Below, piece by piece: positions 10,054-28,200 of a stretch of DNA of 64,000 nt. The position numbers were made by a program, and so were the translations under genes. How positions within the stretch are numbered: the first letter of the stretch is position 1; every line of letters starts with the position of its first letter. The notes below the pieces were generated by a model. That model was not told where the DNA came from, did no database searches, and saw only the letters and a list, made by a program, of their open reading frames with translations. The stretch is from a virus, in IMG/VR virus record IMGVR_UViG_3300028840_006907, positions 224,001 to 288,000 of that record. One strand, given 5' to 3'.

Positions 10054-10269
10054 TAACTTTTCAATCCTGTTGAGAATGGTGACCAGTTCACTTCGGCATT
10101 TTTCAATTTCATTGAATCTGCCGAAGAATTGGTTACTATGCATTAAATTAGCATCTGTTTTTACTTTTCTTAAATCAGAAGCTTGTTGACCTAATCTTCC
10201 TCTACGTTTTAACCATCTCTTTACAAGTTTTCTCAGATTTTCAACTTCAGTTTTTATCTCATCTTTCAT
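10048..10269 (-). CDS. hypothetical protein
   Basis: 73-aa basic, helical ORF and last gene of the minus-strand helicase operon. Its stop overlaps the stop of the convergent fibre gene by 6 nt. Confidence 0.55.
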   Translation of the reverse strand: MKDEIKTEVENLRKLVKRWLKRRGRLGQQASDLRKVKTDANLMHSNQFFGRFNEIEKCRSELVTILNRIEKLL

Positions 10270-10275
10270 AATATT

Positions 10276-12027
10276 TTATGCCTTGTGAAATCGAAAACTA
10301 TTATTAAATAAATAACTAGGTTTTGACTCAACTGATCTTCCCATGTATGTTCTGGTTTTTGAGTAGCTTATATTTAAACATTTCTGAGCCCTTGTGCATG
10401 CTACGTAAAATAATCTCTCTTCCTCTTTTTTATCTACAGCAAAACTATGAGGCCATACTCCTTCTTCTACACCTACAACTAGGACTGTATTAAATTCAAG
10501 ACCTTTACTGGCATGAGCCGTTAATAACTTAACCCCATGTCCGGTATCTTCTTCCAGAAATGTACTTGCTAAAACCAGGTCCTCTATGGTTCTAAATTCT
10601 CTGATGATTTCTAAAAATGAAGTCAGCATTGTACGGTCACTATCTTTTTTAATAGTAGTTCTATAATCTGTTTTATATAAGATAGTCTCAACAGCCTCTG
10701 AAGGAGTCATGCCCTTTATTTCATTTAAGATATTTATAAGTCCTCTTATACGGGGCATTTCATAAGCCATAGTTTCTAGATAAGACCAGCCTTCTCGAAG
10801 TAAAATTTCTTTTTTCTTTGCTCCGAATCCACGAGGGGGTACATTTACGATTCGGTTTAAACTTTCTAAATCATCTCTATTCGTACTGGCTTTGAGAAAA
10901 CTCATTAAATCTTTGGGAACTCTACGCTTATAATAAGGAAGGGCACCAACAACTTTATATGGTATGTGTTTACTTGCAAAAGCTCTTTCAAAGAATAAGG
11001 ATCTTGCATTTACGCGAAACAGTATTGCGGTATTTTCGTAATCGTTGGCTCTTATAAGGGCATTGGATATTTTCTCTGCCTCGTCTTCCTGACTATTAAA
11101 TCCGGTGAAAGATATTGATCCTTGGAAAGGGTTTTTAGCAACCATCTGATTACCGTATTGAATGTATTGATTGGCATGTTTTATGATCTCTGGAGAACAT
11201 CTGTAGTTGAAACTTAAGTGACATACAGTCGGTTTATGTAATTCTATAAAATGTTTTATGTTCTCAGGATGGGCACCCCTAAATTGGTAAATGGACTGAT
11301 TAAAATCAGCCACTACAAACAATGTCTTTGAATTTTTTGTGTATAGTTTATTTATAATGTCATATTGAATTAAAGATGTATCTTGAAATTCGTCTACTAA
11401 TAGATGAGGCCATTTTTTTGAGTAAAAATCAGCGCAATCTTTATGTCCTAAACAGTCATTGGCATAAATGAGTAGGTCATCGAAATCACATGCATTATTT
11501 TTTAGAAGAATCTCTTGGTAAGTTTTATATACAAGTAAAAAATTTCCTTCATTCAGTTCTGATGTAAACTGCGAAAGTCTGAATGATTTCCTGACATTAT
11601 CGGACCCCATTGATTTGATATGGCTAATAGCCAAGACATATGTTTTGGGTTCTCCGGGCAATTCCCGAGATTTAATGATTGTTTTTACAATTGATAACTG
11701 ATCACCGTCATCATATATACTAAAATTAGGTTTTATTGGTAAATGCCGTGTAAAATTTCTGATTATCCCTACACATAAACTGTGAATTGTGCTGACTTGC
11801 ATTTTTCCAATAGAGTCACAATGTAACTTTAATCGCTCTTTCATTTCATTGGCTGCTTTATTCGTAAAAGTAATAGCACATATATTATCTGGAGAAATAC
11901 CTTGTTCCATAAGCCTTAAAATCTTGGCTATAAGACATCGGGTTTTTCCTGATCCTGCCGAGGCATTAACCATTGTAGGTGATGCAGCTTCAACGGCTCT
12001 GGTTTGTTCTGTATCTAATGATATCAT
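10276..12027 (-). CDS. UvrD/PcrA/Rep-type superfamily 1 DNA helicase
   Basis: 583 aa. Walker A NASAGSGKTRCL, Walker B/motif II LLVDEFQDTS, motif V-VI LLTAHASKGLEFNTVLVVG, and LFYVACTRAQKCL. Start overlaps the upstream stop (TAATG). Confidence 0.9.
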   Translation of the reverse strand: MISLDTEQTRAVEAASPTMVNASAGSGKTRCLIAKILRLMEQGISPDNICAITFTNKAANEMKERLKLHCDSIGKMQVSTIHSLCVGIIRNFTRHLPIKPNFSIYDDGDQLSIVKTIIKSRELPGEPKTYVLAISHIKSMGSDNVRKSFRLSQFTSELNEGNFLLVYKTYQEILLKNNACDFDDLLIYANDCLGHKDCADFYSKKWPHLLVDEFQDTSLIQYDIINKLYTKNSKTLFVVADFNQSIYQFRGAHPENIKHFIELHKPTVCHLSFNYRCSPEIIKHANQYIQYGNQMVAKNPFQGSISFTGFNSQEDEAEKISNALIRANDYENTAILFRVNARSLFFERAFASKHIPYKVVGALPYYKRRVPKDLMSFLKASTNRDDLESLNRIVNVPPRGFGAKKKEILLREGWSYLETMAYEMPRIRGLINILNEIKGMTPSEAVETILYKTDYRTTIKKDSDRTMLTSFLEIIREFRTIEDLVLASTFLEEDTGHGVKLLTAHASKGLEFNTVLVVGVEEGVWPHSFAVDKKEEERLFYVACTRAQKCLNISYSKTRTYMGRSVESKPSYLFNNSFRFHKA

Positions 12028-12338
12028 TAATTATAATTCCAAAATCTTGTTTTCATACTTATAACTGAAGCACCCGCTACAATGTTAACGAGTAATCCAT
12101 AATTATAAGTATGGTTAATGTTATGTTTCTTTTTTACATCGTAAAGTTTTTTTAATGTTAATACTATTTCAGCTACTTCTAATAATAATGGAACTTCTTT
12201 TATTTCCTCTGAAGACTTGACTACTGGTTTATATAAATCGCTAAAAATCTTTTTAAAATAAACTTCTACCTCTCCTTTATCCGTCTTGAAAAAAATTCGA
12301 TACCTCCCCTTACCATTCTTTTTTAGTACCTCCATCAT
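12027..12338 (-). CDS. hypothetical protein
   Basis: 103-aa ORF translationally coupled to the helicase gene (TAATG overlap). No motif recognised. Confidence 0.55.
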   Translation of the reverse strand: MMEVLKKNGKGRYRIFFKTDKGEVEVYFKKIFSDLYKPVVKSSEEIKEVPLLLEVAEIVLTLKKLYDVKKKHNINHTYNYGLLVNIVAGASVISMKTRFWNYN

Positions 12339-12420
12339 AAGTCACTGCTAGTTTGGCTTTAATTAGCATTTTACCTAAATCTTTTCCGTCAACAAAGAAA
12401 TAAGTCATGAATTTAGTCAT
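12310..12420 (-). CDS. possible 36-aa coupling ORF (not in the ORF track)
   Basis: Its ATG overlaps the TGA of the upstream gene (ATGA at 12417-12420). Reads MTKFMTYFFVDGKDLGKMLIKAKLAVTYDGGTKKEW and its stop overlaps the next gene's start region. Supported by position only. Confidence 0.25.
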   Translation of the reverse strand: MTKFMTYFFVDGKDLGKMLIKAKLAVTYDGGTKKEW

Positions 12421-12638
12421 GTTTTATTCTTATTTTTTGAATTGCTCTTTTCATCGATTATATATTTTTTAATAGTATATACCTTTATTATTCCGAGTTT
12501 TTTAAATATATAATCTTGAAATTCTTTTTCTAATTTATCGAAATCATAACTTACTAATTCTAAAGCCCATTTTACCCTGAAATCTTTTTCAGCTAATTGA
12601 ATCAATTTTATTTGAAATTCTGTTTGTGTTAATTCCAT
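12417..12638 (-). CDS. hypothetical protein
   Basis: 73-aa ORF in the minus-strand operon. No motif recognised. Confidence 0.5.
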   Translation of the reverse strand: MELTQTEFQIKLIQLAEKDFRVKWALELVSYDFDKLEKEFQDYIFKKLGIIKVYTIKKYIIDEKSNSKNKNKT

Positions 12639-12658
12639 AAATTTTAAGAAAAGTCCTT

Positions 12659-12934
12659 CTATATTTTAGTTAATGGCTCGTCGTATTTTTCAAGAGTTTC
12701 ATCTCTTTTAACCAATTTGCAGTTTACAAATTCAGGCATTCTCGGGTCTTTATTAAATGTATCCACTAATTCCTGAGCATCATCTTTAAATAGACAACAT
12801 GCTTCGTGTGGGTCTTTCACGAAATGTGTCCATGAGTCATTCTCTGAACTGCGAATTTTTTTCATAGCATAAAAAGTACCATTCGGGTGTTGGATTAAAT
12901 AATCCTGGCTAGTATCTGTGTAAAAATCGTTCAT
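12659..12934 (-). CDS. hypothetical protein
   Basis: 91-aa ORF with AAGGCGG 7 nt upstream. First gene behind the conserved extended -10 motif at 12979-12999. Confidence 0.6.
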   Translation of the reverse strand: MNDFYTDTSQDYLIQHPNGTFYAMKKIRSSENDSWTHFVKDPHEACCLFKDDAQELVDTFNKDPRMPEFVNCKLVKRDETLEKYDEPLTKI

Positions 12935-12978
12935 AATATACCGCCTTTTGAATGAGTGTGAATAAGTTAATAGTGAGT

Positions 12979-12999
12979 CCTTTATAAATATTATACCAG
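12979..12999 (-). promoter_or_regulatory. conserved extended -10 promoter motif, family 2 (CTGGTATAATATTTATARAGG)
   Basis: The minus strand reads CTGGTATAATATTTATAAAGG (TGnTATAAT). A 20/21-identical copy lies at 21974-21994. Both sit upstream of minus-strand genes. Confidence 0.6.
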
Positions 13000-13089
13000 T
13001 CTACCCTTGAAACTCTCCCAAAAAAATTTTAATAAAAAATGTGATGGTTTGTAATTCGTTGAGAAGTATAAAATTATAAAACAAAAAAA

Positions 13090-13428
13090 TTAGTCTAAAA
13101 ACTTCTCAATATTTTCTATTGAATTAATGATTTTACCATTTTCTTGTATGAAATAAAATCTTTTTCCACATTTTATACAACTTATTACAGCCATGTTGGG
13201 AACAACTTCTTTAAAATGAAATTGATTATTGATTTGATCTATTACTGATTGCATATTTGAGAAGATGGTATTTCTTTGATATAATGTGAAGACATATTTA
13301 CAGTGAGGGCAGATAATTCGATGAGGATCAACAATTTTTTCCTTATGTTTTTTTATAAGTTCTATGATAAAACTTATAATAATGTAAATACTGAGAAAAG
13401 TCATGGGAAAAATTAATAATTCTTTCAT
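13090..13428 (-). CDS. small membrane-anchored zinc-ribbon protein
   Basis: 112 aa. N-terminal hydrophobic helix (LLIFPMTFLSIYIIISFII), then ICPHCKY...CIKCGK (two CxxC pairs). Start is 1 nt after the upstream stop. Confidence 0.55.
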   Translation of the reverse strand: MKELLIFPMTFLSIYIIISFIIELIKKHKEKIVDPHRIICPHCKYVFTLYQRNTIFSNMQSVIDQINNQFHFKEVVPNMAVISCIKCGKRFYFIQENGKIINSIENIEKFLD

Positions 13429-13429
13429 T

Positions 13430-13813
13430 CTAAAGATAATCCTCTATTCGTTTAGCCTTTTCATTCAGATATAATAGGACTTTTTCATCATCTTTGATTT
13501 TACCTTTATCATCGATATATGAAGTCATCTCAATAGATTTGATAGGTTTAACAGTCCCATGATTGATTTCAATTTTTCTATGTACTCCTTTTACTAACAA
13601 GTCAATTTCTTCTTTCTCATCTGAGTCCCAGTGGTACTCTGGGAATAAATAATTAATCTGATTCTTACCATAACCTTTAAATCGACTCAGGATGAAACTG
13701 TTATCAAATTTGTTAAATATGCCTAAAGTCGAATTTCTTGCCATTATAAGATACAGGCAATTGTGTATACATTTATTTAATGGGACATATGATTTAAATT
13801 TCTCTATGCTCAT
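13430..13813 (-). CDS. hypothetical protein
   Basis: 127-aa ORF directly downstream of the E1-like gene in the same operon. No motif recognised. Confidence 0.55.
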   Translation of the reverse strand: MSIEKFKSYVPLNKCIHNCLYLIMARNSTLGIFNKFDNSFILSRFKGYGKNQINYLFPEYHWDSDEKEEIDLLVKGVHRKIEINHGTVKPIKSIEMTSYIDDKGKIKDDEKVLLYLNEKAKRIEDYL

Positions 13814-13828
13814 TGAGTAATATATTTT

Positions 13829-14470
13829 TTATCTATCAAATTCTGAAATTTTCATATCTTTTAAAGTGATTATATAATTCTTTTTAACACCACTCTCAAT
13901 GAATTTGATTAATGACTCCGATGCTACTGCCACTGCCAGAAGTATAATATTCCTGGCCAATGGGTACTCGCATACATCAGGAGCTATCGTGTCTTTTGGG
14001 ACGGTATAAGATTCGTTCCATATTATTTCCGCGTAATCCTGAGACAGCCCGACATGTAAACAGCTCAAACCATTATCCTTACAATATTGATAAACTAATT
14101 TTCGGCTAATATTATTATCAAAAGAATCGATGATAATATTTGGTTTTTTCAAATATTTACTCACAGTAGTTTTATTAAGTTCTTTACTATTGGCATTCAA
14201 AACAGTTTTGGTTGAAGCATATGCTCTCATTTTCATAGTCGCTACTTTGTAGGTACCTTTTTCATTTTGGTTCCAGATCTGGGTACCATTATTGTGAGGT
14301 TCAATTCTGTCTTTATCGATAATTGTAATTTCTTTGAATCCCTGTCGAACTAAATTATCACAAAGATTTGACCCTATTGCTCCGACACCACAGAGTGTAA
14401 TTGGGGTTGTTGATAATTTACCAACTACTTCTTCAGATCGATACATTCTTTCATGTATTAATAAATCCAT
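13829..14470 (-). CDS. E1-like (ThiF/MoeB-family) adenylation-domain protein
   Basis: 213 aa. Rossmann motif ITLCGVGAIGSNLCDNLVRQGFKEITIIDKDRIEPHNNGTQ (GxGxxG followed by D-x-D...N...Q), then IIDSFDNNISRKL (the DN of ThiF-type folds). A Cys sits in DVCEYPLARN. The usual Arg of N-x-x-R-Q is Thr here. Confidence 0.75.
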   Translation of the reverse strand: MDLLIHERMYRSEEVVGKLSTTPITLCGVGAIGSNLCDNLVRQGFKEITIIDKDRIEPHNNGTQIWNQNEKGTYKVATMKMRAYASTKTVLNANSKELNKTTVSKYLKKPNIIIDSFDNNISRKLVYQYCKDNGLSCLHVGLSQDYAEIIWNESYTVPKDTIAPDVCEYPLARNIILLAVAVASESLIKFIESGVKKNYIITLKDMKISEFDR

Positions 14471-14474
14471 AATA

Positions 14475-14999
14475 TCATCCTATCCTAGCTATAATGCGAT
14501 CTTTTAACAAGACAAAGGGAATTTCAATACAACCTACAATCCGGTCTTTGTCTCTTTTATATAAATAAAATCTTTGTACTTCTGATTTGATTCCACATAA
14601 TAACGGTTTACCCAAAGCTTTGACCCAACCAGTCATAGTTTTATCATCTAAGGATGAAGGTTCCATTATATTACTTGGATGAGTATGATTAAAACCTACT
14701 ATTTTATTTCTGTCTCTGATTACTTTTTCCCAGTCAAAATCAACTGAACCAGGACCACCAGTGGATTCATAGATTAGTCTACCATAAATCCATTTGCAGT
14801 ATTTTTTACCATATATGATCCAACAATTTTCGTTAATTGTTTGTACTACTTCAATAGCTTCTATTGTTAATTTATTTTTATTGTAAATACCTTTATATGT
14901 TCGACCACATTCTGGGCATGGCATTCTTTGTGTTTCATTTTCTGTAATCCAGCATATATATTTTCCGCACTTACATGTAAATTCACTGCTTTCGGGCAT
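14475..14999 (-). CDS. zinc-ribbon + JAB/MPN+ (JAMM) metallopeptidase
   Basis: 174 aa. N-terminal CKCGKY...CPECGR. Exact JAMM signature GFNHTHPSNIMEPSSLD (H-x-H-x7-S-x2-D). Confidence 0.8.
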   Translation of the reverse strand: MPESSEFTCKCGKYICWITENETQRMPCPECGRTYKGIYNKNKLTIEAIEVVQTINENCWIIYGKKYCKWIYGRLIYESTGGPGSVDFDWEKVIRDRNKIVGFNHTHPSNIMEPSSLDDKTMTGWVKALGKPLLCGIKSEVQRFYLYKRDKDRIVGCIEIPFVLLKDRIIARIG

Positions 15000-15025: not shown

Positions 15026-15925
15026 CTAATACAACGTTCTACTTATTTGATGAGTGCGTTGACCCTCTTTTATTACAGAAATTAATGCTTTTAAATCATA
15101 GTCTTTATCACCAACATGACCTGTTTCATGGTCGGTTAAACAGATGCCTGCAGTAATAACGTGGTGACTTTGATCTTTAGTAACAATAGTATTAAATTTC
15201 TCTCCATCGATTTCATATGTTACATAAATATGATCCGATTTTTCATCACTGCTCAGGTATTTACCTCCGGCAAATTCTATATCACGTTGAATCTTTGTTT
15301 TTTTCTTTTCTTCAAGTGCTCGTTCACGTTCTTCTTTGATTTTTAAATCGATTTTGTATTTTATGTTAAAAGCAATTTTCTCCTCCAATGTCAGACCAGA
15401 GAATTTTAATTTAGATGGGTCTCTGAATTCTTTCAGGGACTCATTAAGATAATCTGTAATCATCGGATCGGCTGACATATCCATTGAATCAAACCAGATA
15501 TTAGCTCCGTCAAATCGGCATAGACATTTAGAAAATGTTGTAACCATATCATCGAAAAGAAGAACTGGGTATAATTCTGATACTTTTAATCCCAGATGAT
15601 TACTCTTTATCGGGATCCCAAGATAAAAATCTTTCTTTTTATGTACTAAAACCATTCTTATCTTTGGTAAATATTTAAGATAAGATTGAATCTCATCTAT
15701 TTCCGCTAAATCTATTGCTTCAGCCCGTTTATTATCAAGTGCTTTGAATTTGTACCATCCCGGTTCTGTTTTCGGGATGTTTAAGTAATGAATAATTCCT
15801 TGAATACGGATAATGATTCGGTCATTATAATACACAGGAGAAATGATAGTCTTTTCAGTCATCATTTCTTCCTGTTTCCCTATTTTATCAATAAGGTTTA
15901 AAATATTATCTTTTCTTACGGTCAA
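15026..15925 (-). CDS. hypothetical protein with C-terminal E2/UBC-like active-site motif
   Basis: 299 aa. TTG start with GAGGAA 5 nt upstream, overlapping the upstream gene by 20 nt. The C-terminus YVTYEIDGEKFNTIVTKDQSHHVITAGICLTDHETG...LKALISVIKEG resembles the UBC motif HPN-x3-G-x-ICLD...SI-x-LL. The N-terminal ~220 aa has no recognised motif. Confidence 0.45.
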   Translation of the reverse strand: MTVRKDNILNLIDKIGKQEEMMTEKTIISPVYYNDRIIIRIQGIIHYLNIPKTEPGWYKFKALDNKRAEAIDLAEIDEIQSYLKYLPKIRMVLVHKKKDFYLGIPIKSNHLGLKVSELYPVLLFDDMVTTFSKCLCRFDGANIWFDSMDMSADPMITDYLNESLKEFRDPSKLKFSGLTLEEKIAFNIKYKIDLKIKEERERALEEKKKTKIQRDIEFAGGKYLSSDEKSDHIYVTYEIDGEKFNTIVTKDQSHHVITAGICLTDHETGHVGDKDYDLKALISVIKEGQRTHQISRTLY

Positions 15926-17462
15926 AAGATTTCCTCACGGGTAAAGGTGTATCCATGATCTCATATAGAAGATCGAGTTTTGATTTTCTGGATAGCAATG
16001 GAATTAATCCAGGCAATCCATAGTAATCGCTACCTTCAGGTTCATAGTAATCGAAAGGTATTCTAGCTTGTTTTAAATACATGCTGAATTCTTTACGACT
16101 CCATGAACTTGGAATGTAAATAATAGTAATAGTAGGAGTCACATTAAATTTTTTAACATAATTATCCCATATCTCAACGAAAAATGGATTATTATTTTCA
16201 CCTTCATCAGTGACCACTATTATCTGTTCTACATAATAGTTTTTTCTAATAAGGTAATCTAATGCTATACCTATGGAAGTCCCACCATTACTTTTTACAG
16301 GTCTGAAAGCCCTTTCCCAGGCAGACATATTCGGTTCATTAGCTGTGATCTCTCTGGCCATTGTATCAAAAGTAATAGCATAGAGAGGAGCTTCTGTAGC
16401 ACCTGAAATAAGAGCCGCAACATTTTTTCCGACTTCGATGGCTTGAGTCATAGAACCTGATTTATCGATAAAGACTGCAGTAGGTACTTTTATAACACCT
16501 TTCTTTTTAATTTGCTGATCTGCAATTTCATCGAGGATCTTTTGAGATTCCTCATTTTTGATCCGACCTGTTTTCTTTGCTTCTTTGGATTTTAAAGCTG
16601 ATACATTTTTAGCTTTTTTAGCTTTTTCCAATTTAGCCGTAATCAATGTTTTTGTATCCTCATTGTCCATGGCACCACGTTCTTCTAGGGAAGCATAGTT
16701 ATTAATAACTTCCTGTGGAGACATAGCATTGATTAGAGCAATCAGAATTGTAGGAGTGATTTGATCAACCAAACCTACAGCCACCGTATAAGGTACTTTA
16801 TGTTCTATAATCAGCTTTGCCACTTCAGTCGGATTATCAGCTTGTGCTATTTTTTCGAAAACATTTAATTTACTGTCCGTAGGACGTTCATTTCCGAAAA
16901 GAATCTTCTGAGCACGTTCACTAGGTGCTATACGAAGAGTAGCATATAATCCTTTAAGATCTTTTGGACTTTTTAGGGCAATAGCATCAAAAAGATCGTT
17001 GTTGGTTTCAATATATTGAAGAAATTTCTCAACATCCCTTTTAAAGGCAGTAGGAATATTTTTGTAAAGACCTACATTTTTTTCTTCAATTTTTACTTCA
17101 TCGATCATTTTTTTCTTCATTTTTATTTTTTTGCCCGTTTTATTTCTGATCTTTATTTTTTTACCTTTAATAAAACCGACCACACGTCTTTTAAGATATA
17201 CAGGTATTTCCCTGAAGAGGGCTAGCCCAACTTCACGGTTGTCAAGAAATTCATCAACAATAAGTGAACCGATGAATACTTCTTTATGATCCCGAATATC
17301 TCCATTCTTGTAGTACCAGCTTCCAAGGTGGGCATAAAACAGCGGATCTGCTTTTTGTAATTCAAGATGGGTATTTTTTAATTTATCTAGGTCCCGGTGA
17401 GGGCAACTCAGAAATGAGTTAAGCATGTTAACTCTGATATCATTTTCGTTAGCTTGGTTCAT
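15906..17462 (-). CDS. Ro60/TROVE-like protein with C-terminal vWA (MIDAS) domain
   Basis: 518 aa with AAGGAGG upstream. The C-terminal ~190 aa parallels the Ro60 vWA block by block: VFIDKSGSM (DxSxS), AITFDT, NGGTSIGIAL, QIIVVTDEGEN. The N-terminal ~330 aa is helical with ADPLFYAHLGSWYYKNGDIRDHKEVFIGSLIV, similar to the TROVE N-terminal signature. Contains a Lys-rich insert (GKKIKIRNKTGKKIKMKKK). Confidence 0.6.
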   Translation of the reverse strand: MNQANENDIRVNMLNSFLSCPHRDLDKLKNTHLELQKADPLFYAHLGSWYYKNGDIRDHKEVFIGSLIVDEFLDNREVGLALFREIPVYLKRRVVGFIKGKKIKIRNKTGKKIKMKKKMIDEVKIEEKNVGLYKNIPTAFKRDVEKFLQYIETNNDLFDAIALKSPKDLKGLYATLRIAPSERAQKILFGNERPTDSKLNVFEKIAQADNPTEVAKLIIEHKVPYTVAVGLVDQITPTILIALINAMSPQEVINNYASLEERGAMDNEDTKTLITAKLEKAKKAKNVSALKSKEAKKTGRIKNEESQKILDEIADQQIKKKGVIKVPTAVFIDKSGSMTQAIEVGKNVAALISGATEAPLYAITFDTMAREITANEPNMSAWERAFRPVKSNGGTSIGIALDYLIRKNYYVEQIIVVTDEGENNNPFFVEIWDNYVKKFNVTPTITIIYIPSSWSRKEFSMYLKQARIPFDYYEPEGSDYYGLPGLIPLLSRKSKLDLLYEIMDTPLPVRKSFDRKKR

Positions 17463-17483: not shown

Positions 17484-17750
17484 TCAGGTTTCAATTTTTC
17501 CGAAAGTAGCATTTGGTCTAACTGTAATGTTACCATTTTTATGGTGTTCAACAACTAATTCAGCAAATTCTGATGCTGGTCTATCATAATGATCTACTAA
17601 AGCCAATTTAATTTGTTCACCAGTTATATTATCCGATGTGATCTCGGTTCCTGGTTCAATCCCGAGTTGTTCCCATCTGTCTTCTGGGAAAAGATCTTTG
17701 AGATTAATATCTTCAGTTTGACCATCATACATTATATGGACTTCACTCAT
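17484..17750 (-). CDS. small acidic protein, candidate ubiquitin-like (beta-grasp) modifier
   Basis: Start revised to the ATG at 17750, with GGAGG 5 nt upstream; the 109-aa version in the track lacks an RBS. 88 aa: MSEVHIMYDGQTEDINL...ITVRPNATFGKIET. First gene of the E2/JAB/E1 operon, with a Gly 4 residues from the C-terminus. Confidence 0.6.
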   Translation of the reverse strand: MSEVHIMYDGQTEDINLKDLFPEDRWEQLGIEPGTEITSDNITGEQIKLALVDHYDRPASEFAELVVEHHKNGNITVRPNATFGKIET

Positions 17751-17790
17751 ATGAGCCTCCTTGTAATAAGTTAAAAAAAGAGTCCCGTAT

Positions 17791-17807
17791 ATTATACGAC
17801 ACGAGAT
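17791..17807 (-). promoter_or_regulatory. conserved promoter motif, family 1 (CTYCRTGTCGTATAAT)
   Basis: The minus strand reads ATCTCGTGTCGTATAAT, about 40 nt upstream of the 17750 start. The same TGTCGTATAAT core recurs at 18956-18972 and 61807-61823 on the plus strand. Confidence 0.6.
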
Positions 17808-17888
17808 TAACATTTCATTAAGTAAAAAATTGGGTAGAATATAAATTCTTGTGTGTCATCATGGTAAATAACTTTTTTAAAAAAATTA

Positions 17889-17923: not shown

Positions 17924-18063
17924 AGTTCTGCACTCTAACTTTTGATGCTTACATAGAGAAAATAGCTCAGTTGGTCAGAGCGCGAGATTTAGGTTCTTGA
18001 AGTCTTCGGTTCAATTCCGAATTTTCTTACCATAAAATTAGCACCTTCAACTTGTGCAGAACT
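17924..18063 (+). ncRNA. structured RNA unit 1: shared closing module enclosing a complete tRNA
   Basis: Perfect 10-bp terminal helix AGTTCTGCAC (17924-33) / GTGCAGAACT (18054-63). Family module just inside it: 5' TCTAACTTTTGATGCTTACA and 3' GCACCTTCAACTT. The cargo is the tRNA at 17956-18032. Confidence 0.6.
17956..18032 (+). tRNA. tRNA, anticodon UAG (Leu by the standard table), class-I shape, CCA encoded
   Basis: Hand-folded cloverleaf. Acceptor GAGAAAA/TTTTCTT (G1-U72). D-arm GCTC-AGTTGGTCA-GAGC. Anticodon arm CGAGA-TTTAGGT-TCTTG (U33, anticodon TAG at 17990-92, G37). 5-nt variable loop AAGTC. T-arm TTCGG-TTCAATT-CCGAA, A73, then CCA. Confidence 0.85.
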
Positions 18064-18477: not shown

Positions 18478-18660
18478 GAGGTAAGTGCCTCCTAACATAA
18501 CGGGCTTACAAATTAATAGGGTTCAACTCCCTGTTCCCCCGCCTAAGTCTTTGTCATATAATGATTAAGATTTGGGCGGGGGAACGAGCTGGGTGGTTCA
18601 GCAATCAACGTTTAATTGATGAAAAACATTTTTACGCTCTTTTAACTTAGGCACTTACTC
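18478..18660 (+). ncRNA. structured RNA unit 4: closing module + circularly permuted tRNA-like core
   Basis: Terminal helix GAGGTAAGTGCC / GGCACTTACTC, followed by TTTTT. T-arm AGGG-TTCAACT-CCCT. Closed acceptor-like hairpin GTTCCCCCGCC...GGCGGGGGAAC. D-arm GCTG-GGTGGTT-CAGC. Hairpin ATCAA-CGTTTAA-TTGAT. Confidence 0.6.
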
Positions 18661-19015: not shown

Positions 19016-21643
19016 ATGACATGTAAAATTTGTAAGAGTAATCTTTCTTATACTTTTGATAAATTTCCAGCTTATAAGTTCTGTCCTTGTTGTAACCTTT
19101 ATTTTCAAGAAGAATTTCCACCAAAGATATTTGAAGGTCCTGATGAGAATAACGGGCATGGTCCCGGTACAGGTCATTTAATGTCTGAGGATGAAAAGGA
19201 AATAAATAAAAATTTCGCTAATGTTCTCTATGATATGTTTATTCCTCGAACTCTTCTAGATATAGGTTGTAAATACCCCTATTTTATTAGTGTGTTAAAA
19301 GATAAAATAGATGTATTAGGAATTGATCCTATTTCAGAGATCTTGAAATATGGAGAAGAATTGGGTGTCTCTGTAATTCGTGATGATTTTGAAGATATGA
19401 ATATTACTCCTTTAAAAAATAAATTCGATTTAATAACTTTGATACATACTTTCGAACATTTTTATAGCCCAATAGAGACCATGAAAAAGATAATCGAATG
19501 TCTTACTCATAGAGGAGTGCTTTTAATAAGAATTCCAAACATAGATATTGAAGGTATAGAAAGAGATTTTACTGATCATCATGTTCAAATCCATCCCTTT
19601 ATATATTCAACACAAGCAATGTATCGAATCGCTCAAAAATTTGATTGTGAAATTTTTAGGGTCGATGATATTATTGGATATGGCCAGAGCGATTTTTATT
19701 TAAGGAAGAAAAGGGACCATCTTTCTTTATCGGTTTGTATGATTGTAAAAGATGAGGAAAAGAATGTTTCTGATTGTTTGGAGAGTATAAAAGATGTAGC
19801 TGATGAAATCATAGTTGTGGATACCGGATCTATAGATAATACCAAAGAAATAGTATCCAAATATACAACAAAGATATATGACTTTAAATGGATTGATGAC
19901 TTTTCTGCTGCTAGAAATCACTCTTTAAGTAAGGCAACGGGTGACTTTATTTTATGGCTTGATGCTGATGATATTGTAGAAAATCCAGAAAAGATTAATG
20001 AAATATTAAAAAATGATGATGCTAAGATATTTAATTTTAATATTAAATATGGAAATGATGTCTTTAGTCAGGCTAGACTATTTAGGAATTTTTATAATAT
20101 AAAATTTTCTGGTAGAGTTCATGAATATCCTGTAATCGATAATTTATATATAAAAGATACTGAAGTTAATGTAATTCATAAAACCGAAAAACATTCAACA
20201 GAAAACCGTTCTGATAGAAATCTCCGTCTCCTTAAAAAAGAATACGAAGATAATCCGAACAATTCCCGGACACTTTTTTACCTGGCAAGTGCTTATAAAG
20301 AACTTACTCGTTGGGATGAAGCTATAGATTTTTATCGAAAATATTTAACTATTTCTATCTGGAAAGATGAGAGATGGATGGCTCAAAAGAATATTGGATG
20401 TATTCTTTCCTGGAATAGAAAATATGAAGAAGCCATTGAAGAATTGAAGAAGGCTATTGAAATAGATGATCGATGGGCTGAGTCATATTATTATATAGCT
20501 GAGTGTTATTTCTATTTAAAAAACCCTCAAGAATGTATAAACTGGTCTTTAAAAGCTATTGAGAAAAAGATGCCCGAATCACCTCTTTGGAAAGAGATCC
20601 CAATTTATAATGACGCACCATACCGTTATCTCTTTGCTTCTTATGGTTCTTTAGGTGATTTTGAGAAAGCATTGCATTATTGTAAGATAGCATCAGAAAA
20701 AGTTCCTGAGGATGAATGGCTTAAGGAAAGAGTCACTTATTTTGAGAATGCTACAAAAGGAGTTCCTGTTGTAGTCGAATGTAATCGGTGGGGGGCTTTG
20801 GGTGATTGTTTAATGACAACTGCATCTTTACGTGCCATTAAGCATAAGATTCCGGGTTGTTTTATAAGATATGTCACCCATCCTAGTATGTTCCCGATCC
20901 TTGAAGGGAATAAGTTTATAGATGAACTTGTATCAGAATCTAAATCTGAGAACTCAGAAAAGGTTTATTTCTCATATCCTGACAGTAAATCTCCTATTAA
21001 AGATGAAGGTTATCCTAATAAGCCTTTGAATCGCCATTTAGTACGTATATTCGCAGAATGTGCTGGTTTAAAAGAATTTGATAATCTAAAGATGGAGTGT
21101 ACTCTTACAAAAGATGAGGAGAAATCAGGTCAGTCATTGAGATCTCGATTTAAGAAATATGTGACTCTTCATATCCATTCGGGTTGGTCTGAGTATAAGG
21201 ATTGGTATAATGATCGTTGGGAGACTGTTGTAGATGAGTTATTTAAAAGAGGTTACGTGGTTGTTCAGCTAGGCCATAAAGATGAGGGTCTCTTAGTTGG
21301 TACTGTGGATTATAGAGGCCATACTATAAAAGAAGCTATCTCTGCAATAAAATATGCTGATATTCATTTAGGAGTGGATTCATTTACAAACCATGCCTCG
21401 GCTACTGTGGGGACTCCTGCAGTTATTTTATTTGGGTCTACTTCTCCAACCGGTTCCGGGTATGATCAGAATATAAACCTTTATAAAGATTTGAAATGTC
21501 AGCCTTGTTATAAAGAATATGCATGGTCTAAGGATAATAAAGGAAAATGTCCTTATAATAAACTATGTATGGATCAGATCCTGGTTCAGGAAGTATTAGA
21601 CGGTTTTATGAGATTAGAAAAAAAATTATTTATTGATGGATAA
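19016..21643 (+). CDS. multidomain glycan-modifying enzyme (Zn-ribbon, SAM-methyltransferase-like, GT2, TPR, GT9/heptosyltransferase-like)
   Basis: 875 aa. CKICKS...CPCCN. Methyltransferase motif I-like LLDIGCKYPYF. GT2 motifs LSVCMIVKDEEKNV...IIVVDTGSIDNT and WLDADD. TPR-like LFYLASAYKELTRWDEAIDFYRKYL. GT9-like NRWGALGDCLMTTASLRAIKHKIPG and GVDSFTNHAS. Confidence 0.75.
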   Translation: MTCKICKSNLSYTFDKFPAYKFCPCCNLYFQEEFPPKIFEGPDENNGHGPGTGHLMSEDEKEINKNFANVLYDMFIPRTLLDIGCKYPYFISVLKDKIDVLGIDPISEILKYGEELGVSVIRDDFEDMNITPLKNKFDLITLIHTFEHFYSPIETMKKIIECLTHRGVLLIRIPNIDIEGIERDFTDHHVQIHPFIYSTQAMYRIAQKFDCEIFRVDDIIGYGQSDFYLRKKRDHLSLSVCMIVKDEEKNVSDCLESIKDVADEIIVVDTGSIDNTKEIVSKYTTKIYDFKWIDDFSAARNHSLSKATGDFILWLDADDIVENPEKINEILKNDDAKIFNFNIKYGNDVFSQARLFRNFYNIKFSGRVHEYPVIDNLYIKDTEVNVIHKTEKHSTENRSDRNLRLLKKEYEDNPNNSRTLFYLASAYKELTRWDEAIDFYRKYLTISIWKDERWMAQKNIGCILSWNRKYEEAIEELKKAIEIDDRWAESYYYIAECYFYLKNPQECINWSLKAIEKKMPESPLWKEIPIYNDAPYRYLFASYGSLGDFEKALHYCKIASEKVPEDEWLKERVTYFENATKGVPVVVECNRWGALGDCLMTTASLRAIKHKIPGCFIRYVTHPSMFPILEGNKFIDELVSESKSENSEKVYFSYPDSKSPIKDEGYPNKPLNRHLVRIFAECAGLKEFDNLKMECTLTKDEEKSGQSLRSRFKKYVTLHIHSGWSEYKDWYNDRWETVVDELFKRGYVVVQLGHKDEGLLVGTVDYRGHTIKEAISAIKYADIHLGVDSFTNHASATVGTPAVILFGSTSPTGSGYDQNINLYKDLKCQPCYKEYAWSKDNKGKCPYNKLCMDQILVQEVLDGFMRLEKKLFIDG

Positions 21644-22250: not shown

Positions 22251-25200
22251 ATGGCCAAGACAAAAAGGAAATGGATTGAGCTGGATTGGTACAATCCCAA
22301 TGCCTTACGTGCACAAGACATACCTTACGATCAAACCGAAAGTGTAAAAGATGCTATAGATAGAGCTGCCTCTGGAGTTCTCGGTCCGACGGGGACCACG
22401 GGTTCGACCGGTTCAACAGGTTCGACGGGTCCAACGGGTCCGACGGGAGCCACGGGTGCGACGGGAGCAGGAATCCAGGGTGAAACCGGAGTCGCTGGAG
22501 TTCAAGGAGCTACCGGAACCGGTGGTGGTGGAGATACTGGTGTCCAGGGTGAGACCGGTTTACCCGGAGCCACAGGAATCCAAGGTACAACCGGTATCCA
22601 GGGAACTACAGGAATCCAAGGTGAAACTGGAATCCAGGGACATACAGGTACAGTTGGAACAACGGGTGTTCAAGGAGAAACCGGTTCTCAGGGTACTACT
22701 GGAATCCAGGGAGAAACTGGAGTAAAAGGTGAAACTGGTATTCAAGGTCAAACCGGTATAGCTGGTGGAGCAGGATTTCCAGGAGCAACTGGAGTCCAGG
22801 GCGAAACCGGAGTCCAAGGAACTACTGGGGTTCAAGGGGAAACCGGGGTTCAAGGAACCACAGGAGTAGCCGGAGCAACCGGAGTCCAGGGAACTACTGG
22901 CGTCCAGGGAACTACTGGCATCCAAGGTGAAACGGGTGTCCAGGGAGATACTGGAGTTGGTGCCACTGGAATCCAAGGAACCACAGGTATCCAGGGTCAA
23001 ACCGGTGTTCAAGGTATCACCGGAGCTTATGGTGGTCCTCCTGGAGAAACTGGTGTCAAGGGAGAAACCGGAGTACAGGGGGCTACTGGAATCCAAGGTC
23101 TTCAAGGATTGCAGGGAACCAAAGGTGAGACCGGAACACAAGGTATTCAAGGCCAGACCGGAGTTCAGGGAGAAACTGGAGTTCAAGGGCAGACTGGTAC
23201 AGGTGCTCCAGGAGCCACTGGAGTTCAAGGGCAGACTGGTATCCAGGGAACCACTGGAATAGGTTTAGGTTCAACAGGAGTAGCGGGAGCAACTGGAATT
23301 CAAGGTACTACCGGAGTTCAAGGTAGGACTGGAGTCCAAGGATTTACCGGAGCTGCTGGTTTAGGTGAAACTGGTATCCAAGGAGCTACCGGAGTCCAGG
23401 GTGCCACAGGTATTCAAGGGACTACTGGTGCAGGAATCCAAGGAGCCACAGGTATTAGTGGTGACACGGGAGTTCAAGGAGCCACAGGAATTAGAGGTAC
23501 TACTGGTGCAGGAATCCAAGGAGCCACGGGGGTTCAGGGCATTCAAGGTCAAACTGGAGCCCAGGGCGAAACCGGAGTCCAGGGTGAAACCGGAATAGAA
23601 GGTTCTCAATTTGCAGGATTTAATTATAAAGCAAAAACAGACAATCAATCTGATACAGATCCTGGTATAGGAAATTTAAAGTGGAGTGCTGTAGCTCAAG
23701 TCACATCTAGTGAGCTTTATGTGGATGATGCTGACGTTAATTCTACGGATCTCAGTAATTTTTACCTCACTTTAAAAGCTGCCGACTCTTTACGTATTGT
23801 TCGTATGGAAGATCCTTCTCAGTATCAGATTTTTAATATAACAAACGTTACTGATAGAACCGGATGGTTCCGTTTATCTGTTACACCTGTTGTTTCAGGT
23901 GGTTCGACTTTTAGTTTAAATGATAATATCATACTGATATTTAGTATATCAGGTCCTAGAGGTCAGACCGGAGTAAAAGGTGAGACTGGAATTCAAGGAA
24001 CTACAGGTGTTGCCGGAGCCACAGGAGTCCAAGGTCAAACTGGAATTCAGGGTCAAACTGGAATCCAGGGCATACAGGGCCAGACTGGAATTCAAGGACA
24101 AACTGGTATTCAAGGTCAAACAGGAATCCAAGGTCAGACAGGTGTTGGCGCTCAGGGTGCTACTGGTGTAGCTGGTCAAACCGGGGTCCAGGGAGAAACT
24201 GGGATACAAGGTCAGACTGGTGCAGGAATCCAGGGAACTACTGGTGTTCAAGGCGTTCAAGGATTAACAGGTGTGCAAGGCCAGACAGGTGCCGGAATCC
24301 AAGGTGAAACCGGAGTCCAGGGTACTCAAGGTTTAACCGGTATACAGGGTCAGACAGGTGCTGGAATCCAAGGAGAGACTGGTGTTCAGGGAAACACTGG
24401 GGCTTTTGGTGGTCCTCCCGGAGAAACTGGTGTTCAGGGAGAAACTGGTGCACAAGGTTTAACTGGAGTCCAAGGTCAAACCGGAGCAGGTATTCAGGGA
24501 GCCACTGGTATTCAAGGAGTTACTGGAGTTCAAGGCCAAACCGGTGCTGGTATTCAAGGAGTCACTGGAATCCAAGGACAAACTGGTATACAGGGTCAGA
24601 CAGGAGTAGCAGGTCAGACCGGAGTCCAAGGAATACAAGGCCAGACAGGAGTAGCAGGTCAGACCGGAGTTCAAGGAATTCAAGGACAAACCGGAATAGC
24701 AGGTCAGACCGGAGTTCAGGGTATACAAGGTCAAACTGGAATTCAAGGGCAGACTGGTGCTGGAATCCAAGGTACAACTGGAGTAGCCGGAGCTACAGGA
24801 GTTCAGGGAATTCAAGGTCAAACAGGAGCTGGAATCCAAGGTACAACTGGAGTCCAGGGAACTACAGGAGTTCAAGGTGAAACTGGTACTGGTATTCAGG
24901 GAGAAACTGGTACGCAAGGTATTCAGGGTCAAACCGGAATTCAGGGACAGACTGGGATTCAAGGTAATACTGGTGTAAAAGGTGAAACCGGAGTTCAGGG
25001 TTTTCCAGGTCCTCAGGGTACGAAAGGTGATACTGGTGCTCAAGGTATTCAAGGTGAGACAGGAACTCAAGGAATTCAGGGCCAAACTGGAGTAGCTGGA
25101 GAAACTGGAGTTCAGGGTCAAACGGGTACTCAAGGAATTCAGGGTCAGACTGGTGTAGCTGGTGCAACTGGTGCGGGAATTCAAGGTCAAACTGGTGTTC

Positions 25201-28200
25201 AAGGAATCCAAGGTCAGACTGGAATCCAGGGGCAAACTGGAGTCCAGGGTGAAACAGGTATAGAAGGATCTTTATGGGCTGGATTTAGTTATAATGCCAA
25301 GACTGATGATCAGTCAGATACAGATCCTGGTACAGGGAATCTTAAATGGAGTACTGTTGCTCAGGTAAATGCGGGTGAACTTTATGTAGATGATACTGAT
25401 CAATATTCCATAGATTTAAGTAATTTTTATCTTACGTTAAAGGCTGGTGATTCTCTTCGAATAATTCGTCAGGAAGACCCTTCTCAATATCAAATTTATA
25501 ATATAACAAATGTTACAGATAGAACAGGTTGGTTCCGTCTTAGTGTGACCTATGTTACTTCAGGTGGATCTACTTTCAGTCTTAATGATAATATTATTCT
25601 TGTTTTTGTTAAAGCTGGAATTCAAGGTCAGACAGGTGCCCAAGGTATTCAAGGTCAAACAGGAGTCCAAGGAATTCAAGGACAGACTGGAGTTCAAGGA
25701 GCCACAGGTACCCAAGGAATTCAGGGGCCACAAGGCCAGATAGGTCTTCAAGGTACTACTGGGGTCCAAGGTGAAACCGGAGTCCAGGGCACACAAGGTC
25801 AGACGGGTATCCAGGGTACAACAGGTGCCGGGATTCAGGGTCAAACCGGAGTCCAGGGAATTCAGGGTCAAACCGGTATTCAAGGTCAAACAGGAGCAGG
25901 TATTCAGGGAGCTACTGGTATTGCTGGTATAGATGGTCAGACTGGAATCCAGGGTGAAACCGGAATTCAGGGCCAAACTGGAGCTGGTATTCAGGGAGCT
26001 ACTGGTATTGCTGGTATAGATGGTCAGACTGGAATCCAGGGTGAAACCGGAATTCAGGGCCAAACTGGAGCTGGAATCCAAGGTGAAACCGGTATCCAAG
26101 GAATTCAAGGATTAACAGGTATTCAAGGTACAACTGGTGCTGGCATTCAGGGAGAAACTGGAGTACAGGGTACACAAGGTCAAACAGGTGTTCAAGGTCA
26201 AACAGGTGCCGGAATTCAGGGTGAAACCGGAGTCCAGGGCACACAAGGTCAAACCGGTATTCAGGGTCAAACTGGCGCTGGTATCCAAGGTGTGACAGGA
26301 ATTCAAGGAATACAAGGACAAACTGGTATCCAGGGTCAAACGGGTGCCGGAATCCAAGGAGAAACCGGAGTCCAGGGAGAAACAGGAATACAAGGTCAGA
26401 CTGGTGCAGGAATCCAGGGAACTACTGGTGTTCAAGGCGTCCAAGGATTAACAGGTGTCCAGGGTCAAACTGGTGCTGGTATTCAAGGTGAAACCGGAGT
26501 CCAGGGTACTCAAGGTTTAACTGGTATACAGGGTCAGACAGGTGCTGGCATTCAGGGAGAAACCGGGGTCCAGGGAGAAACTGGAATACAAGGTCAGACT
26601 GGTGCAGGGATTCAGGGTGTGACAGGAATTCAAGGTCAAACTGGAGTTCAGGGAACTACAGGAATCCAGGGTCAAACAGGTGTTGGGATCCAGGGTGTGA
26701 CTGGAGTTCAAGGAATTCAAGGTCAAACCGGTATTCAAGGTCAAACCGGTATTCAAGGTGAAACCGGAGTGTCTGGAGCTACAGGTATTCAGGGAATTCA
26801 AGGTCAAACCGGAATCCAGGGTCAGACCGGAGTCCAAGGAGAAACAGGTGTACAAGGTTCTACAGGTGTATTAGGTGATCCTAATTGGATAGATTTTGTA
26901 CCTCAAGCATCTGCTCCTAGTCATCAGGAAGCTCGCCTTTTTTATGATTCAACAGACCATTCATTGAGTTATTACAATGAAGAATCTGATGTTACCCTGA
27001 ATTTAGGTCGTGAATTATATATCAGAGTGTATAATGCAACAGTTTCAACAATAACTAACGGTCAAGTAGTTTATGTCACAGGTGTTGCTGCAGGATACCC
27101 CACAATAGATTTAGCAGATGGTAGTGATTTAACTAAGACTAATAATATAGGAGTGGCTACTCATAATATAGAAGCCTCAACATTTGGTTATATCACATTA
27201 TTTGGATTAGTAAGAGATATTAATACTAATGCTTTCAGTGCTGGTGATGAAGTTTGGTTAAGTGAAAGTACTCCAGGTGGTTACCAGTCTTTTGCAGGTA
27301 CATATGCCGTTAAAATAGGTTATGTTGTTGTTTCAGATACATTAAATGGTTCAATAATGGTAGCTATGGGTGATACGGAAGCTACTATAGCTGGATTGAA
27401 TGATGTAAATCTTACTAGTATCTCTGATGGTCAGTATTTACAATGGGACTCGGATTCTACTAAATGGGTTAATGTTTCTGAAAGTCCTCAAGGTGATACA
27501 GGTATCCAAGGAGCAACTGGAGTTCAAGGAATTCAAGGAACTACAGGAGTTCAAGGAGCAACTGGAGTTCAAGGTATTCAAGGAACCACAGGAATTCAAG
27601 GACAGACCGGAGTTCAGGGTGAAACCGGAATTCAAGGAACTACAGGAGTCCAGGGAGAAACTGGTACTGCAGGAATAGACGGTCAGACAGGAGTTCAGGG
27701 TGAAACCGGTATTGCAGGAATAGATGGTCAGACAGGAGTTCAAGGTACTACCGGAGTTCAGGGAATTCAAGGAACTACAGGAATTCAGGGAGAAACCGGT
27801 ACTGCAGGAATAGACGGTCAGACAGGAGTTCAAGGTGAAACTGGAACTGCAGGAATAGACGGTCAGACAGGAGTTCAAGGTACTACCGGAGTTCAAGGAA
27901 CCACTGGAATTCAAGGTACTACCGGAATTCAGGGAACTACTGGAATTCAGGGAGAAACCGGTACTGCAGGAATAGACGGTCAGACAGGAGTCCAAGGTAC
28001 TACTGGGATTCAGGGGGAAACCGGAGTCCAAGGTACCACAGGGATTCAGGGAGAAACCGGAGTCCAAGGTACTACTGGAATTCAGGGAGAAACTGGTGTT
28101 TTTGGGATTGTCAATTATATCGATTATGAACCTCAAGATACAGTTCCTTCTCATTTAGAAGGTCGTACCTTTTATGACAGTACAGATCATTCTTTAAGTT

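Follow-up and report, generated by a model that had tools for sequence, protein, structure and literature searches.

Ubiquitin-like proteins (Ubls) of prokaryotes occur in triads with an activating enzyme (E1) and a JAMM (JAB) metallopeptidase, and such triads are known from sulfur transfer, SAMPylation, Bil systems and cyclic oligonucleotide-based antiphage signaling systems (CBASS). In SAMP/UbaA and TtuB/TtuC, conjugation proceeds without a conjugating enzyme (E2), and a JAMM peptidase can trim the Ubl from a precursor, as QbsD does for QbsE. Such trimming has also been described for Caldiarchaeum Ub and Rpn11 (PMC6043591). Here, we analyze an 88-aa protein encoded in a 64,000-nucleotide stretch of the virus record IMGVR_UViG_3300028840_006907 (positions 224,001 to 288,000; henceforth termed the window, whose numbering is used throughout), where it opens a five-gene cassette. 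With moderate confidence, and from sequence and gene context, we read this protein as the precursor of a Ubl modifier of an unnamed family, working within an E2-free JAMM/E1 pathway that would switch a tRNA-linked ribonucleoprotein (RNP) module.

The Ubl, p518, p299, JAB and E1 genes form a co-directional run with the Ubl gene first:

17484..17750, minus strand: candidate Ubl-like modifier precursor, 88 aa; residues 1-84 are the predicted mature part, ending ...RPNATFG
17748-17750, minus strand: start codon ATG of the Ubl gene
17499-17501, minus strand: codon of Gly84, read from the sequence
17487-17498, minus strand: predicted removable tail K85-I86-E87-T88 (KIET)
17484-17486, minus strand: stop codon TGA of the Ubl gene
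17756..17761, minus strand: Shine-Dalgarno sequence AGGAGG, visible in the sequence 5 nt ahead of the ATG
17818..17791, minus strand: sigma-70-like hexamer pair upstream of the Ubl gene, a consensus match only
15906..17462, minus strand: 518-aa protein with a Ro60/TROVE-like helical domain and a von Willebrand factor A (vWA) domain (p518)
15026..15925, minus strand: 299-aa OB-fold-like protein (p299)
14475..14999, minus strand: 174-aa JAMM/JAB metallopeptidase
13829..14470, minus strand: 213-aa minimal E1-like (ThiF-family) adenylyltransferase

In its proposed working, this cassette would by analogy be most like the E2-free systems SAMP/UbaA/HvJAMM1 and TtuB/TtuC/JAMM and like JAMM-trimmed precursors. 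As in the archaeal SAMP and Thermus TtuB systems, a small protein ending in glycine, here possibly of β-grasp type, is paired with a single ThiF-type E1 and no E2 or ligase (E3), a JAMM enzyme is at hand for maturation or deconjugation, and there is a link to tRNA. Unlike in those systems, the Ubl has no detectable sequence homology to theirs and ends in [FYW]-G instead of G-G, the 213-aa E1 scores 28.5 against the 450-bit cut-off of SAMP-E1, and the partners are Ro60-like vWA and OB-fold proteins instead of sulfur-transfer proteins. With Bil (BilABCD) and the Cap2/Cap3 genes of type II CBASS, the cassette shares an operon composed of a substrate or Ubl with C-terminal glycine, an E1 adenylation domain and a JAB, as well as a setting of phage-host conflict; its E1 also matches the PADLOC models of Cap2-type E1-E2 proteins from CBASS (3e-16, below the family cut-off). 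It differs from both in lacking a UBC-fold E2, whether separate or fused, in its single-domain E1, in the family of its Ubl and in its Ro60-like, OB-fold and tRNA neighbors, which have no counterpart there. A short tail past the reactive glycine together with a JAMM gene in the operon is shared with QbsE/QbsD (quinolobactin), CysO/Mec+ and Caldiarchaeum Ub/Rpn11. Those Ubls, however, belong to the ThiS/MoaD or ubiquitin family and end in G-G, whereas the present family is new and its tail optional, with 0-6 residues in most members.

The Ubl gene is real and has a strong ribosome-binding site. Translation of 17484..17750 gives the 88-aa protein MSEVHIMYDGQTEDINLKDLFPEDRWEQLGIEPGTEITSDNITGEQIKLALVDHYDRPASEFAELVVEHHKNGNITVRPNATFGKIET (MSEVH...NATFGKIET), followed by a stop. 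A longer, 109-aa reading from 17813 was rejected because the homologues all begin MSEVH and it is the ATG of this start that has the Shine-Dalgarno sequence ahead of it. With a pI of 4.5 and 18 D/E versus 7 K/R, the protein is acidic; it contains six glycines, just one of which lies near the C-terminus, four residues from the end. An earlier note, made from the window's sequence, had described an acidic 88-aa open reading frame (ORF) opening a cassette, with a JAB gene three genes downstream; the translation, the pI and the co-directional run bear this out, and the 174-aa JAB protein at 14475..14999 is indeed the product of the third gene downstream. Its placement of a glycine four residues from the C-terminus is also correct, in that Gly84 is followed by KIET and the other five glycines lie elsewhere.

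This near-terminal glycine is conserved far beyond chance. A word-indexed search returned four close relatives of the 88-aa protein (50-72% identity), in all of which KNGNITVRPNA[TV]FG is kept and followed by 0, 2 or 4 residues; the glycine does not vary among the five close homologues. The close phage relative P0005 (locus L003) ends NATFG-TGA, with a genuine stop inside its contig, and the relative ending GVT is likewise internal to its contig. A profile search of 1.84 billion cluster representatives extended the family to 91 proteins, and C-terminal motifs were counted over 92 motif-bearing proteins comprising representatives and close homologues. The earlier note had made its reading hinge on conservation of the glycine among homologues; we find it in 90 of the 92, the other two reading F-A, and it is preceded by F in 79, Y in 8 and W in 3. 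Fifty-six proteins stop exactly at [F/Y/W]-G, while 32 carry a tail of 1-6 residues after the glycine (15 of one, eight of two, two of three, five of four and one each of five and six residues), two have tails of 10 and 21 residues, and two more have longer extensions. These tails are without conserved sequence. Among the bacterial loci described below, the stop codon comes straight after the glycine in 77 of 80. A C-terminal glycine that is exposed, or could be exposed by trimming, is thus present across the family, and a terminal glycine with variable tails is, at the level of sequence, the classic signature of a Ubl precursor. Atg8/LC3 and Atg12 also end in ...F-G, and yeast Atg8 (...TFG, then R) is trimmed by Atg4. 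The likeness, i.e., a single reactive glycine behind an aromatic residue and a short tail for removal (KIET after NATFG here, R after TFG in Atg8), is probably convergent; Atg8 shows no sequence homology to the present family and has trimming by a cysteine protease, E2 enzymes and a lipid target.

The gene context is stronger than the earlier note had it, since an E1 and an intact JAMM enzyme are syntenic with the Ubl gene across phyla. Scanning one genome per species with the bacterial-branch pattern T[VL]RP[EQ]AVFG gave 80 loci, mostly from Planctomycetota and otherwise from Chloroflexota, Obscuribacterales, Armatimonadota, Myxococcota and Desulfobacterota. Searches with the phage proteins recovered p518 in 63 of these loci (best E-value 1e-138), p299 in 60, E1 in 56 and JAB in at least 31, with order and strand unchanged. 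The E1 gene is present in 50 of the 58 bacterial loci with enough downstream DNA and also in phage loci with enough flank. Eighteen IMG/VR huge-phage loci and most of 29 metagenome loci contain the cassette as well. Genes for the terminase large subunit, a portal protein and a head-maturation protease on the 388-469 kb contig of the window mark it as part of a huge phage. Across 50,697 phage records, tblastn found p518 only in one unannotated 595-kb uncultured phage from GenBank (LR756511.1), which has the cassette too, and the cassette in no isolated phage. All-against-all clustering of the bacterial neighborhood ORFs, in which shadow ORFs from GC-rich genomes blurred the clusters, revealed no conserved partner in addition to the five. 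The 127-aa and 112-aa genes that follow E1 in the window were found solely on its own contig and are not conserved elsewhere. Together, the conservation of the glycine and the synteny of E1 and JAMM across phyla support, at the level of comparative genomics, the interpretation as a Ubl precursor that the earlier note had put forward.

The Ubl gene is coupled to an E1-like enzyme with intact active-site residues. This protein matches Pfam ThiF at E 1.9e-23 and NCBIfam ThiF at 2.2e-19, the latter again below the family cut-off. At least 90% of 56 orthologues keep the G28-x-G30-A31-x-G33-S34 loop, D52, D54, R55, N60, Q64, K75, D115, D118, N119 and R123, and Cys167, at the position of the crossover-loop cysteine, is kept in 54 of the 56. 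The enzyme is a bare single adenylation domain of 213 aa without a rhodanese or E2 fusion. No E2 was found among the other cassette genes or next to them: p518 is TROVE-vWA-like, p299 was considered as a UBC-fold E2 and rejected because its model is an OB-fold, and the 127-aa and 112-aa genes are private to the contig. A UBC-fold E2 as in Bil, type II CBASS or 6E-type operons is therefore missing, and PADLOC finds no complete system.

The 174-aa protein is matched by PADLOC JAB models and by Pfam Prok-JAB (E 1.6e-4; 21.9 bits, under the 25-bit cut-off), the bacterial orthologues reaching 3e-9 to 8e-9 with Prok-JAB, above the cut-off. Its residues E57, H105-x-H107, S115 and D118 are kept in 31-32 of 32 orthologues and form the catalytic motif E ... 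HxH x7-8 S xx D. Phage orthologues keep this motif, some of them as HxHx8SxxD, with an 8- instead of a 7-residue spacer that explains failures of strict regular expressions. Residues 1-50 of the window protein form an N-terminal Cys-rich, zinc-ribbon-like extension (C9-x-C11 ... C28-x-x-C31) that is missing from most orthologues (127-145 aa); a similar one occurs in L097.

In the mechanism that we propose, the JAMM peptidase would cut off KIET and expose Gly84, and the minimal ThiF-type E1 would adenylate the Gly84 carboxylate and then probably carry the modifier as a thioester on Cys167. Transfer would proceed without a canonical E2, either directly, as in SAMP/UbaA and TtuB/TtuC, or via Cys262 of p299. 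Likely targets would be lysines of p518 and/or p299, or of their clients, and the same JAMM enzyme may also reverse conjugation. The whole module would constitute a tRNA-linked RNP system of huge phages and several bacterial phyla, with the Ubl/E1/JAMM triad as its switch. A JAMM-dependent mass shift from 10,009.0 to 9,537.4 Da (loss of 471.5 Da) is predicted, which offers a precise and cheap test of trimming.

An AlphaFold2 model of the 88-aa protein, built from a 5-sequence alignment (mean predicted local distance difference test (pLDDT) 82.8), contains strands β1 (residues 3-8) and β2 (11-16), a main helix (44-55) and strands β3 (65-69) and β4 (75-79). Two short helices (17-20 and 23-29) and a loop to residue 43 make up a stretch that is missing from minimal, 66-aa family members, and the tail (83-88) has a pLDDT below 50. 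Three segments that the earlier note had singled out for their alternating β/α pattern coincide with β1-β2 (3-16), the main helix (44-55) and β3-β4 (65-79). The model loosely supports a β-grasp-like topology compatible with a Ubl. Structure prediction, which the earlier note had proposed as a check for a β-grasp, does not contradict the Ubl reading, and a Foldseek search of the Protein Data Bank (PDB) gave no significant match. In scans of the 88-aa protein against Pfam, NCBIfam, PADLOC and PHROGs, the sole match was DUF1413 (E 0.057), and a Pfam scan of 79 family members gave scattered single chance matches only, with no Ubl family among them. A sequence-profile search of the PDB returned insignificant uL23 matches only (E 0.1 or worse), and hhalign gave the family profile a probability of 1.5% for ubiquitin and 0.1% for MoaD. 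No hidden Markov model match was obtained to the named Ubl families (Pfam ubiquitin, ThiS, Prok_Ub and Multiubiquitin; NCBIfam PRTRC protein C). None of the protein-family and structure databases searched has a name for the family. Pup is intrinsically disordered, ends in GGQ/GGE and relies on a PafA/Dop ligase. It was rejected as an identity for the 88-aa protein, whose model is folded, whose terminus is FG and whose cassette enzyme is of E1 type, not PafA type.

The cassette is further characterized by adjoining tRNA genes, represented in the window by one feature:

17956..18032, plus strand: tRNA-Leu (anticodon TAG), found by the Rfam tRNA model (65.9 bits) and by ARAGORN

This gene lies 205 nt upstream of the Ubl gene in divergent orientation and is probably the local form of the cassette's tRNA association. 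We counted non-redundant loci with a tRNA gene at most 1 kb upstream of the Ubl gene or between the Ubl gene and p518. Bacterial loci with such a tRNA number 23 of 75, the tRNA being on the same strand in every case; the corresponding counts are 8 of 9 for IMG/VR loci and 11 of 16 for metagenome loci. With roughly one tRNA gene per 100 kb in a bacterial genome, chance would give about 1-2%; tRNA genes and arrays adjoin the cassette far more often than that. In nine Planctomycetota loci (L006, L007, L014, L016, L018, L021, L022, L047 and L048), arrays of 16-35 same-strand tRNA genes end immediately before the Ubl gene, which lies at about position 8000 of the locus, and in several Planctomycetota the arrays are nearly complete sets in conserved order. 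Ten tRNA genes lie between the Ubl gene and p518 in L055 (8382-9571), and in many of the remaining loci just one gene for a tRNA or tRNA-like RNA occupies this place. It seems that the five genes of the cassette accompany the long tRNA arrays as their protein-coding part. Single tRNAs by or in the cassette often have an unusual A34 (atg, aac, aca, att, aag, aaa), a suppressor-like anticodon (tca) or an odd anticodon loop:

Bacterial loci: L007 8281-8354, L010 8414-8489, L026 8424-8497, L034 8628-8703, L039 8481-8554, L041 8415-8488, L050 6068-6143, L067 6243-6314
Phage loci: L086, L090 and L098 (att), L097 (aag), L091 and L123 (tca)

Rfam additionally detects a partial tRNA in L058 (8656-8718) and a 162-nt tRNA-like element in L013 (4197-4358). 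Instead of serving in decoding, the odd single tRNAs might be partner RNAs of tRNA-like form.

The strong tie to tRNA genes and arrays is also what a sulfur carrier of the ThiS/MoaD/TtuB/Urm1 type would lead one to expect. In that case, a thiocarboxylate on Gly84 would supply sulfur for thiolation, e.g., of the neighboring tRNAs, and JAB would only trim the precursor, as QbsD does with QbsE. Urm1, SAMP2 and TtuB serve tRNA 2-thiolation, and there are sulfur carriers known to be trimmed by JAMM enzymes; moreover, the E1 scores best against ThiF/ThiS-adenylyltransferase models, and the cassette lacks an E2. However, neither a rhodanese, a cysteine desulfurase, a PP-loop tRNA thiolase (TtuA/Ncs6/MnmA) nor any other sulfur acceptor lies in the cassette or is conserved nearby, and the same holds for ThiG, MoaE, CysM and TtuA-like genes. 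The terminus is F/Y/W-Gly, not the Gly-Gly typical of sulfur carriers, and the conserved partners are Ro60-like vWA and OB-fold proteins, not sulfur enzymes. We therefore regard a sulfur carrier as unlikely, and by analogy with TtuB the Ubl could conceivably play a dual role, with sulfur transfer beside conjugation.

Among the cassette proteins, p518 is the most conserved, sharing 39-57% identity with its homologues in bacteria and phages. A profile built from 29 homologues matches human Ro60 (9nen_A) at E 3.4e-6 and bacterial TROVE at E 1.5e-3, over the last TROVE helices and the vWA domain; matches of p518 to Pfam vWA are weak (14-17 bits), and Pfam TROVE does not match it. Its metal ion-dependent adhesion site (MIDAS), D333-x-S335-x-S337, is intact and invariant among homologues. 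The model of p299 comprises an N-terminal helix, OB-fold-like β-barrels, a long helix and a small C-terminal barrel that bears the near-invariant Cys262 in the motif A-G-x-C-L. In the apparent TROVE-plus-vWA architecture of p518 and in its adjoining tRNA or tRNA-like genes, the module resembles the RNPs of Ro60/Rsr and Y RNA (YrlA, tRNA-like) (PMC4201824; PMC7824862). It differs from these in that p518 is very divergent and the RNAs next to it look like ordinary tRNAs, either of many identities or in full arrays. The Rsr loci in these two papers are not reported with Ubl, E1 or JAMM genes; the jumbo-phage survey (PMC7824862) notes that some jumbo phages have ROT/TROVE proteins and tRNA-like partners for them, and mentions no Ubl, E1 or JAB. 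Rfam found no Y RNA in the window, at gathering and E-value thresholds, or in related loci. Its only hits in the window are the tRNA-Leu and, below threshold, a long hairpin that mimics miRNA precursors. This very stable hairpin, with a stem of about 19 contiguous, mostly G-C pairs (18511-18602, plus strand; -50.8 kcal/mol, z = -6.0 versus shuffles), lies in the ORF-poor gap of about 1 kb between the tRNA-Leu and an 875-aa gene.

At one locus, L061 (7983-9794) from a Chloroflexia metagenome-assembled genome (MAG), the Ubl is fused in frame to p518 (...TVRPEAVFG-LFRRRRAGTPQ...-p518) through a linker of about 30 residues; in its close relatives L068 and L069, the two genes are in different frames. 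The fusion could be a natural Ub-fusion-like precursor that needs cleavage after the glycine, or it could be an indel error.

The position of the Ubl gene directly before the Ro60-like gene, together with this fusion, raises the alternative that the 88-aa protein is a non-covalent subunit of the Ro60-like RNP. The conserved ...NGN-x-T-V-R-P-x-x-x-F-G would then be a docking motif, its carboxylate binding, e.g., at the vWA MIDAS, and the E1-like enzyme would act elsewhere, e.g., on an RNA base like TcdA. MIDAS domains are known to bind Ubl domains in Rea1-Rsa4/Ytm1, the MIDAS residues of p518 are invariant, and the E1 does match the TcdA model. This match is weak, however (E 1.8e-6), and far below the ThiF score, and the fusion is possibly no more than the indel error of a MAG. 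The terminal glycine with its dispensable, variable tails, the crossover-loop cysteine of the E1 and the JAMM enzyme form a specific signature of C-terminal activation, and the E1 is kept in the 50 of 58 loci noted above. A purely docking subunit is, in our view, quite unlikely.

How tails and JAB genes are distributed bears on the role of the peptidase. Among bacterial loci with at least 5.5 kb of downstream sequence, 29 of 57 tail-less loci have a JAB gene. In JAB-less loci, p299 abuts the E1 gene directly (e.g., L005, L018, L029, L030, L037, L041 and L046). Every tail-bearing locus with enough flank has a JAB gene, about 17 in all, a count that includes the one in-frame Ubl-p518 fusion and possibly some near-identical loci (L001, L085-87, L090, L093, L094, L097, L103, L104, L112, L117, L119, L121, L122, L127-129 and L061). 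The association between tail and JAB has a Fisher p of ~1e-4, without phylogeny correction, and the pattern fits a peptidase that is indispensable where trimming is needed. We infer cleavage of KIET by JAB. Since most family members are tail-less and about half of the bacterial operons are without JAB, trimming is not its only role and perhaps not the main one; the fact that many operons keep JAB without having a tailed Ubl argues for deconjugation as a further, or the main, function of the enzyme.

Taken to its limit, this argument leads to a true Ubl whose JAB is solely a deconjugating isopeptidase, with KIET removed by another protease or tolerated by the E1. Cap3, BilC and HvJAMM1 are primarily isopeptidases, and although 56 of the 92 motif-bearing proteins need no trimming, JAB is kept in the 29 tail-less bacterial loci and in all tail-less phage loci. 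Yet no tail-bearing locus is without JAB, no other peptidase is conserved in the cassette, and deconjugating JAMM enzymes usually process linear C-terminal extensions too (PMC6043591, CsRpn11), which makes an enzyme restricted to deconjugation very unlikely. That the activated glycine is joined to RNA or an aminoacyl-tRNA instead of a protein we consider highly improbable.

Several observations weigh against our reading of the 88-aa protein as a Ubl precursor in an E2-free pathway. No target, E2 or E3 was found. The modifier ends in a single glycine after an aromatic residue, not in Gly-Gly, and neither by sequence nor by profile does it resemble any Pfam, NCBIfam, PHROG or PADLOC family, PDB sequences, ubiquitin or MoaD; its structure model rests on just five sequences. 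Most family members are tail-less, so that trimming is no general requirement, and the JAMM gene is missing from about half of the bacterial operons. The correlation between tails and JAMM is in addition confounded by clade: phage loci hold most of the tails, and all of them keep JAB, tailed or not.

Individual loci vary in their gene content. In L022, a second, stand-alone vWA gene (9550-10329) is inserted between the Ubl gene and p518; L003 has an extra 72-aa ORF (618-836) inserted in the cassette; and L058 carries a WD40 β-propeller gene and another gene on the opposite strand between p518 and p299 (10549-14281). The surroundings of the cassette in the window comprise the following genes:

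10276-12027, minus strand: UvrD-family helicase (583 aa) at the downstream end of the same minus-strand run, not conserved with the cassette elsewhere
19016-21643, plus strand: 875-aa multidomain protein with Pfam methyltransferase, GT2 glycosyltransferase, TPR and GT9 (heptosyltransferase-like) domains, according to the precomputed annotation of an identical contig
3040-10053, plus strand: giant ORF of 2337 aa flanking the cassette region
22251-31487, plus strand: giant ORF of 3078 aa flanking the cassette region

The two giant ORFs consist largely of collagen-like G-x-T/G-x-Q triplet repeats and globular modules and probably encode fiber or virion-surface proteins.

The cassette is described neither in surveys of prokaryotic Ubls (PMC1779556, PMC7159879) nor in papers on tRNA arrays (PMC4758250, PMC8421152). 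We likewise found no description of it in the literature on vWA/TROVE/Ro60 proteins with JAB, E1, Ubl or a tRNA array, a comparison that leaves aside Burroughs & Aravind 2016 (Rot/TROVE RNA repair). It differs from the known Ubl-E1-JAMM triads in that its Ubl is unrecognised by database models, there is no E2, the triad is tied to Ro60-like and OB-fold proteins, and it stands next to tRNA genes or arrays. In this tRNA-adjoining form it spans huge phages, Planctomycetota, Chloroflexota, Obscuribacterales and Armatimonadota. A wider reading, which we offer tentatively as a possibility, is that of a distinct, undescribed prokaryotic Ubl pathway, in which a new Ubl and a minimal E1, with no UBC E2 and possibly via the OB-fold cysteine, would switch a Ro60-like, tRNA-handling RNP; the pathway would travel with tRNA arrays between huge phages and bacteria and serve tRNA supply, protection or quality control in conflict. 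If our reading of the cassette is true, it would connect the conjugation of ubiquitin-like proteins with the biology of tRNAs and RNPs in phage-host conflict and provide a simple, E2-free system for studying the evolution of Ubl transfer. It would also suggest what the protein-coding companions of long bacterial tRNA arrays do.

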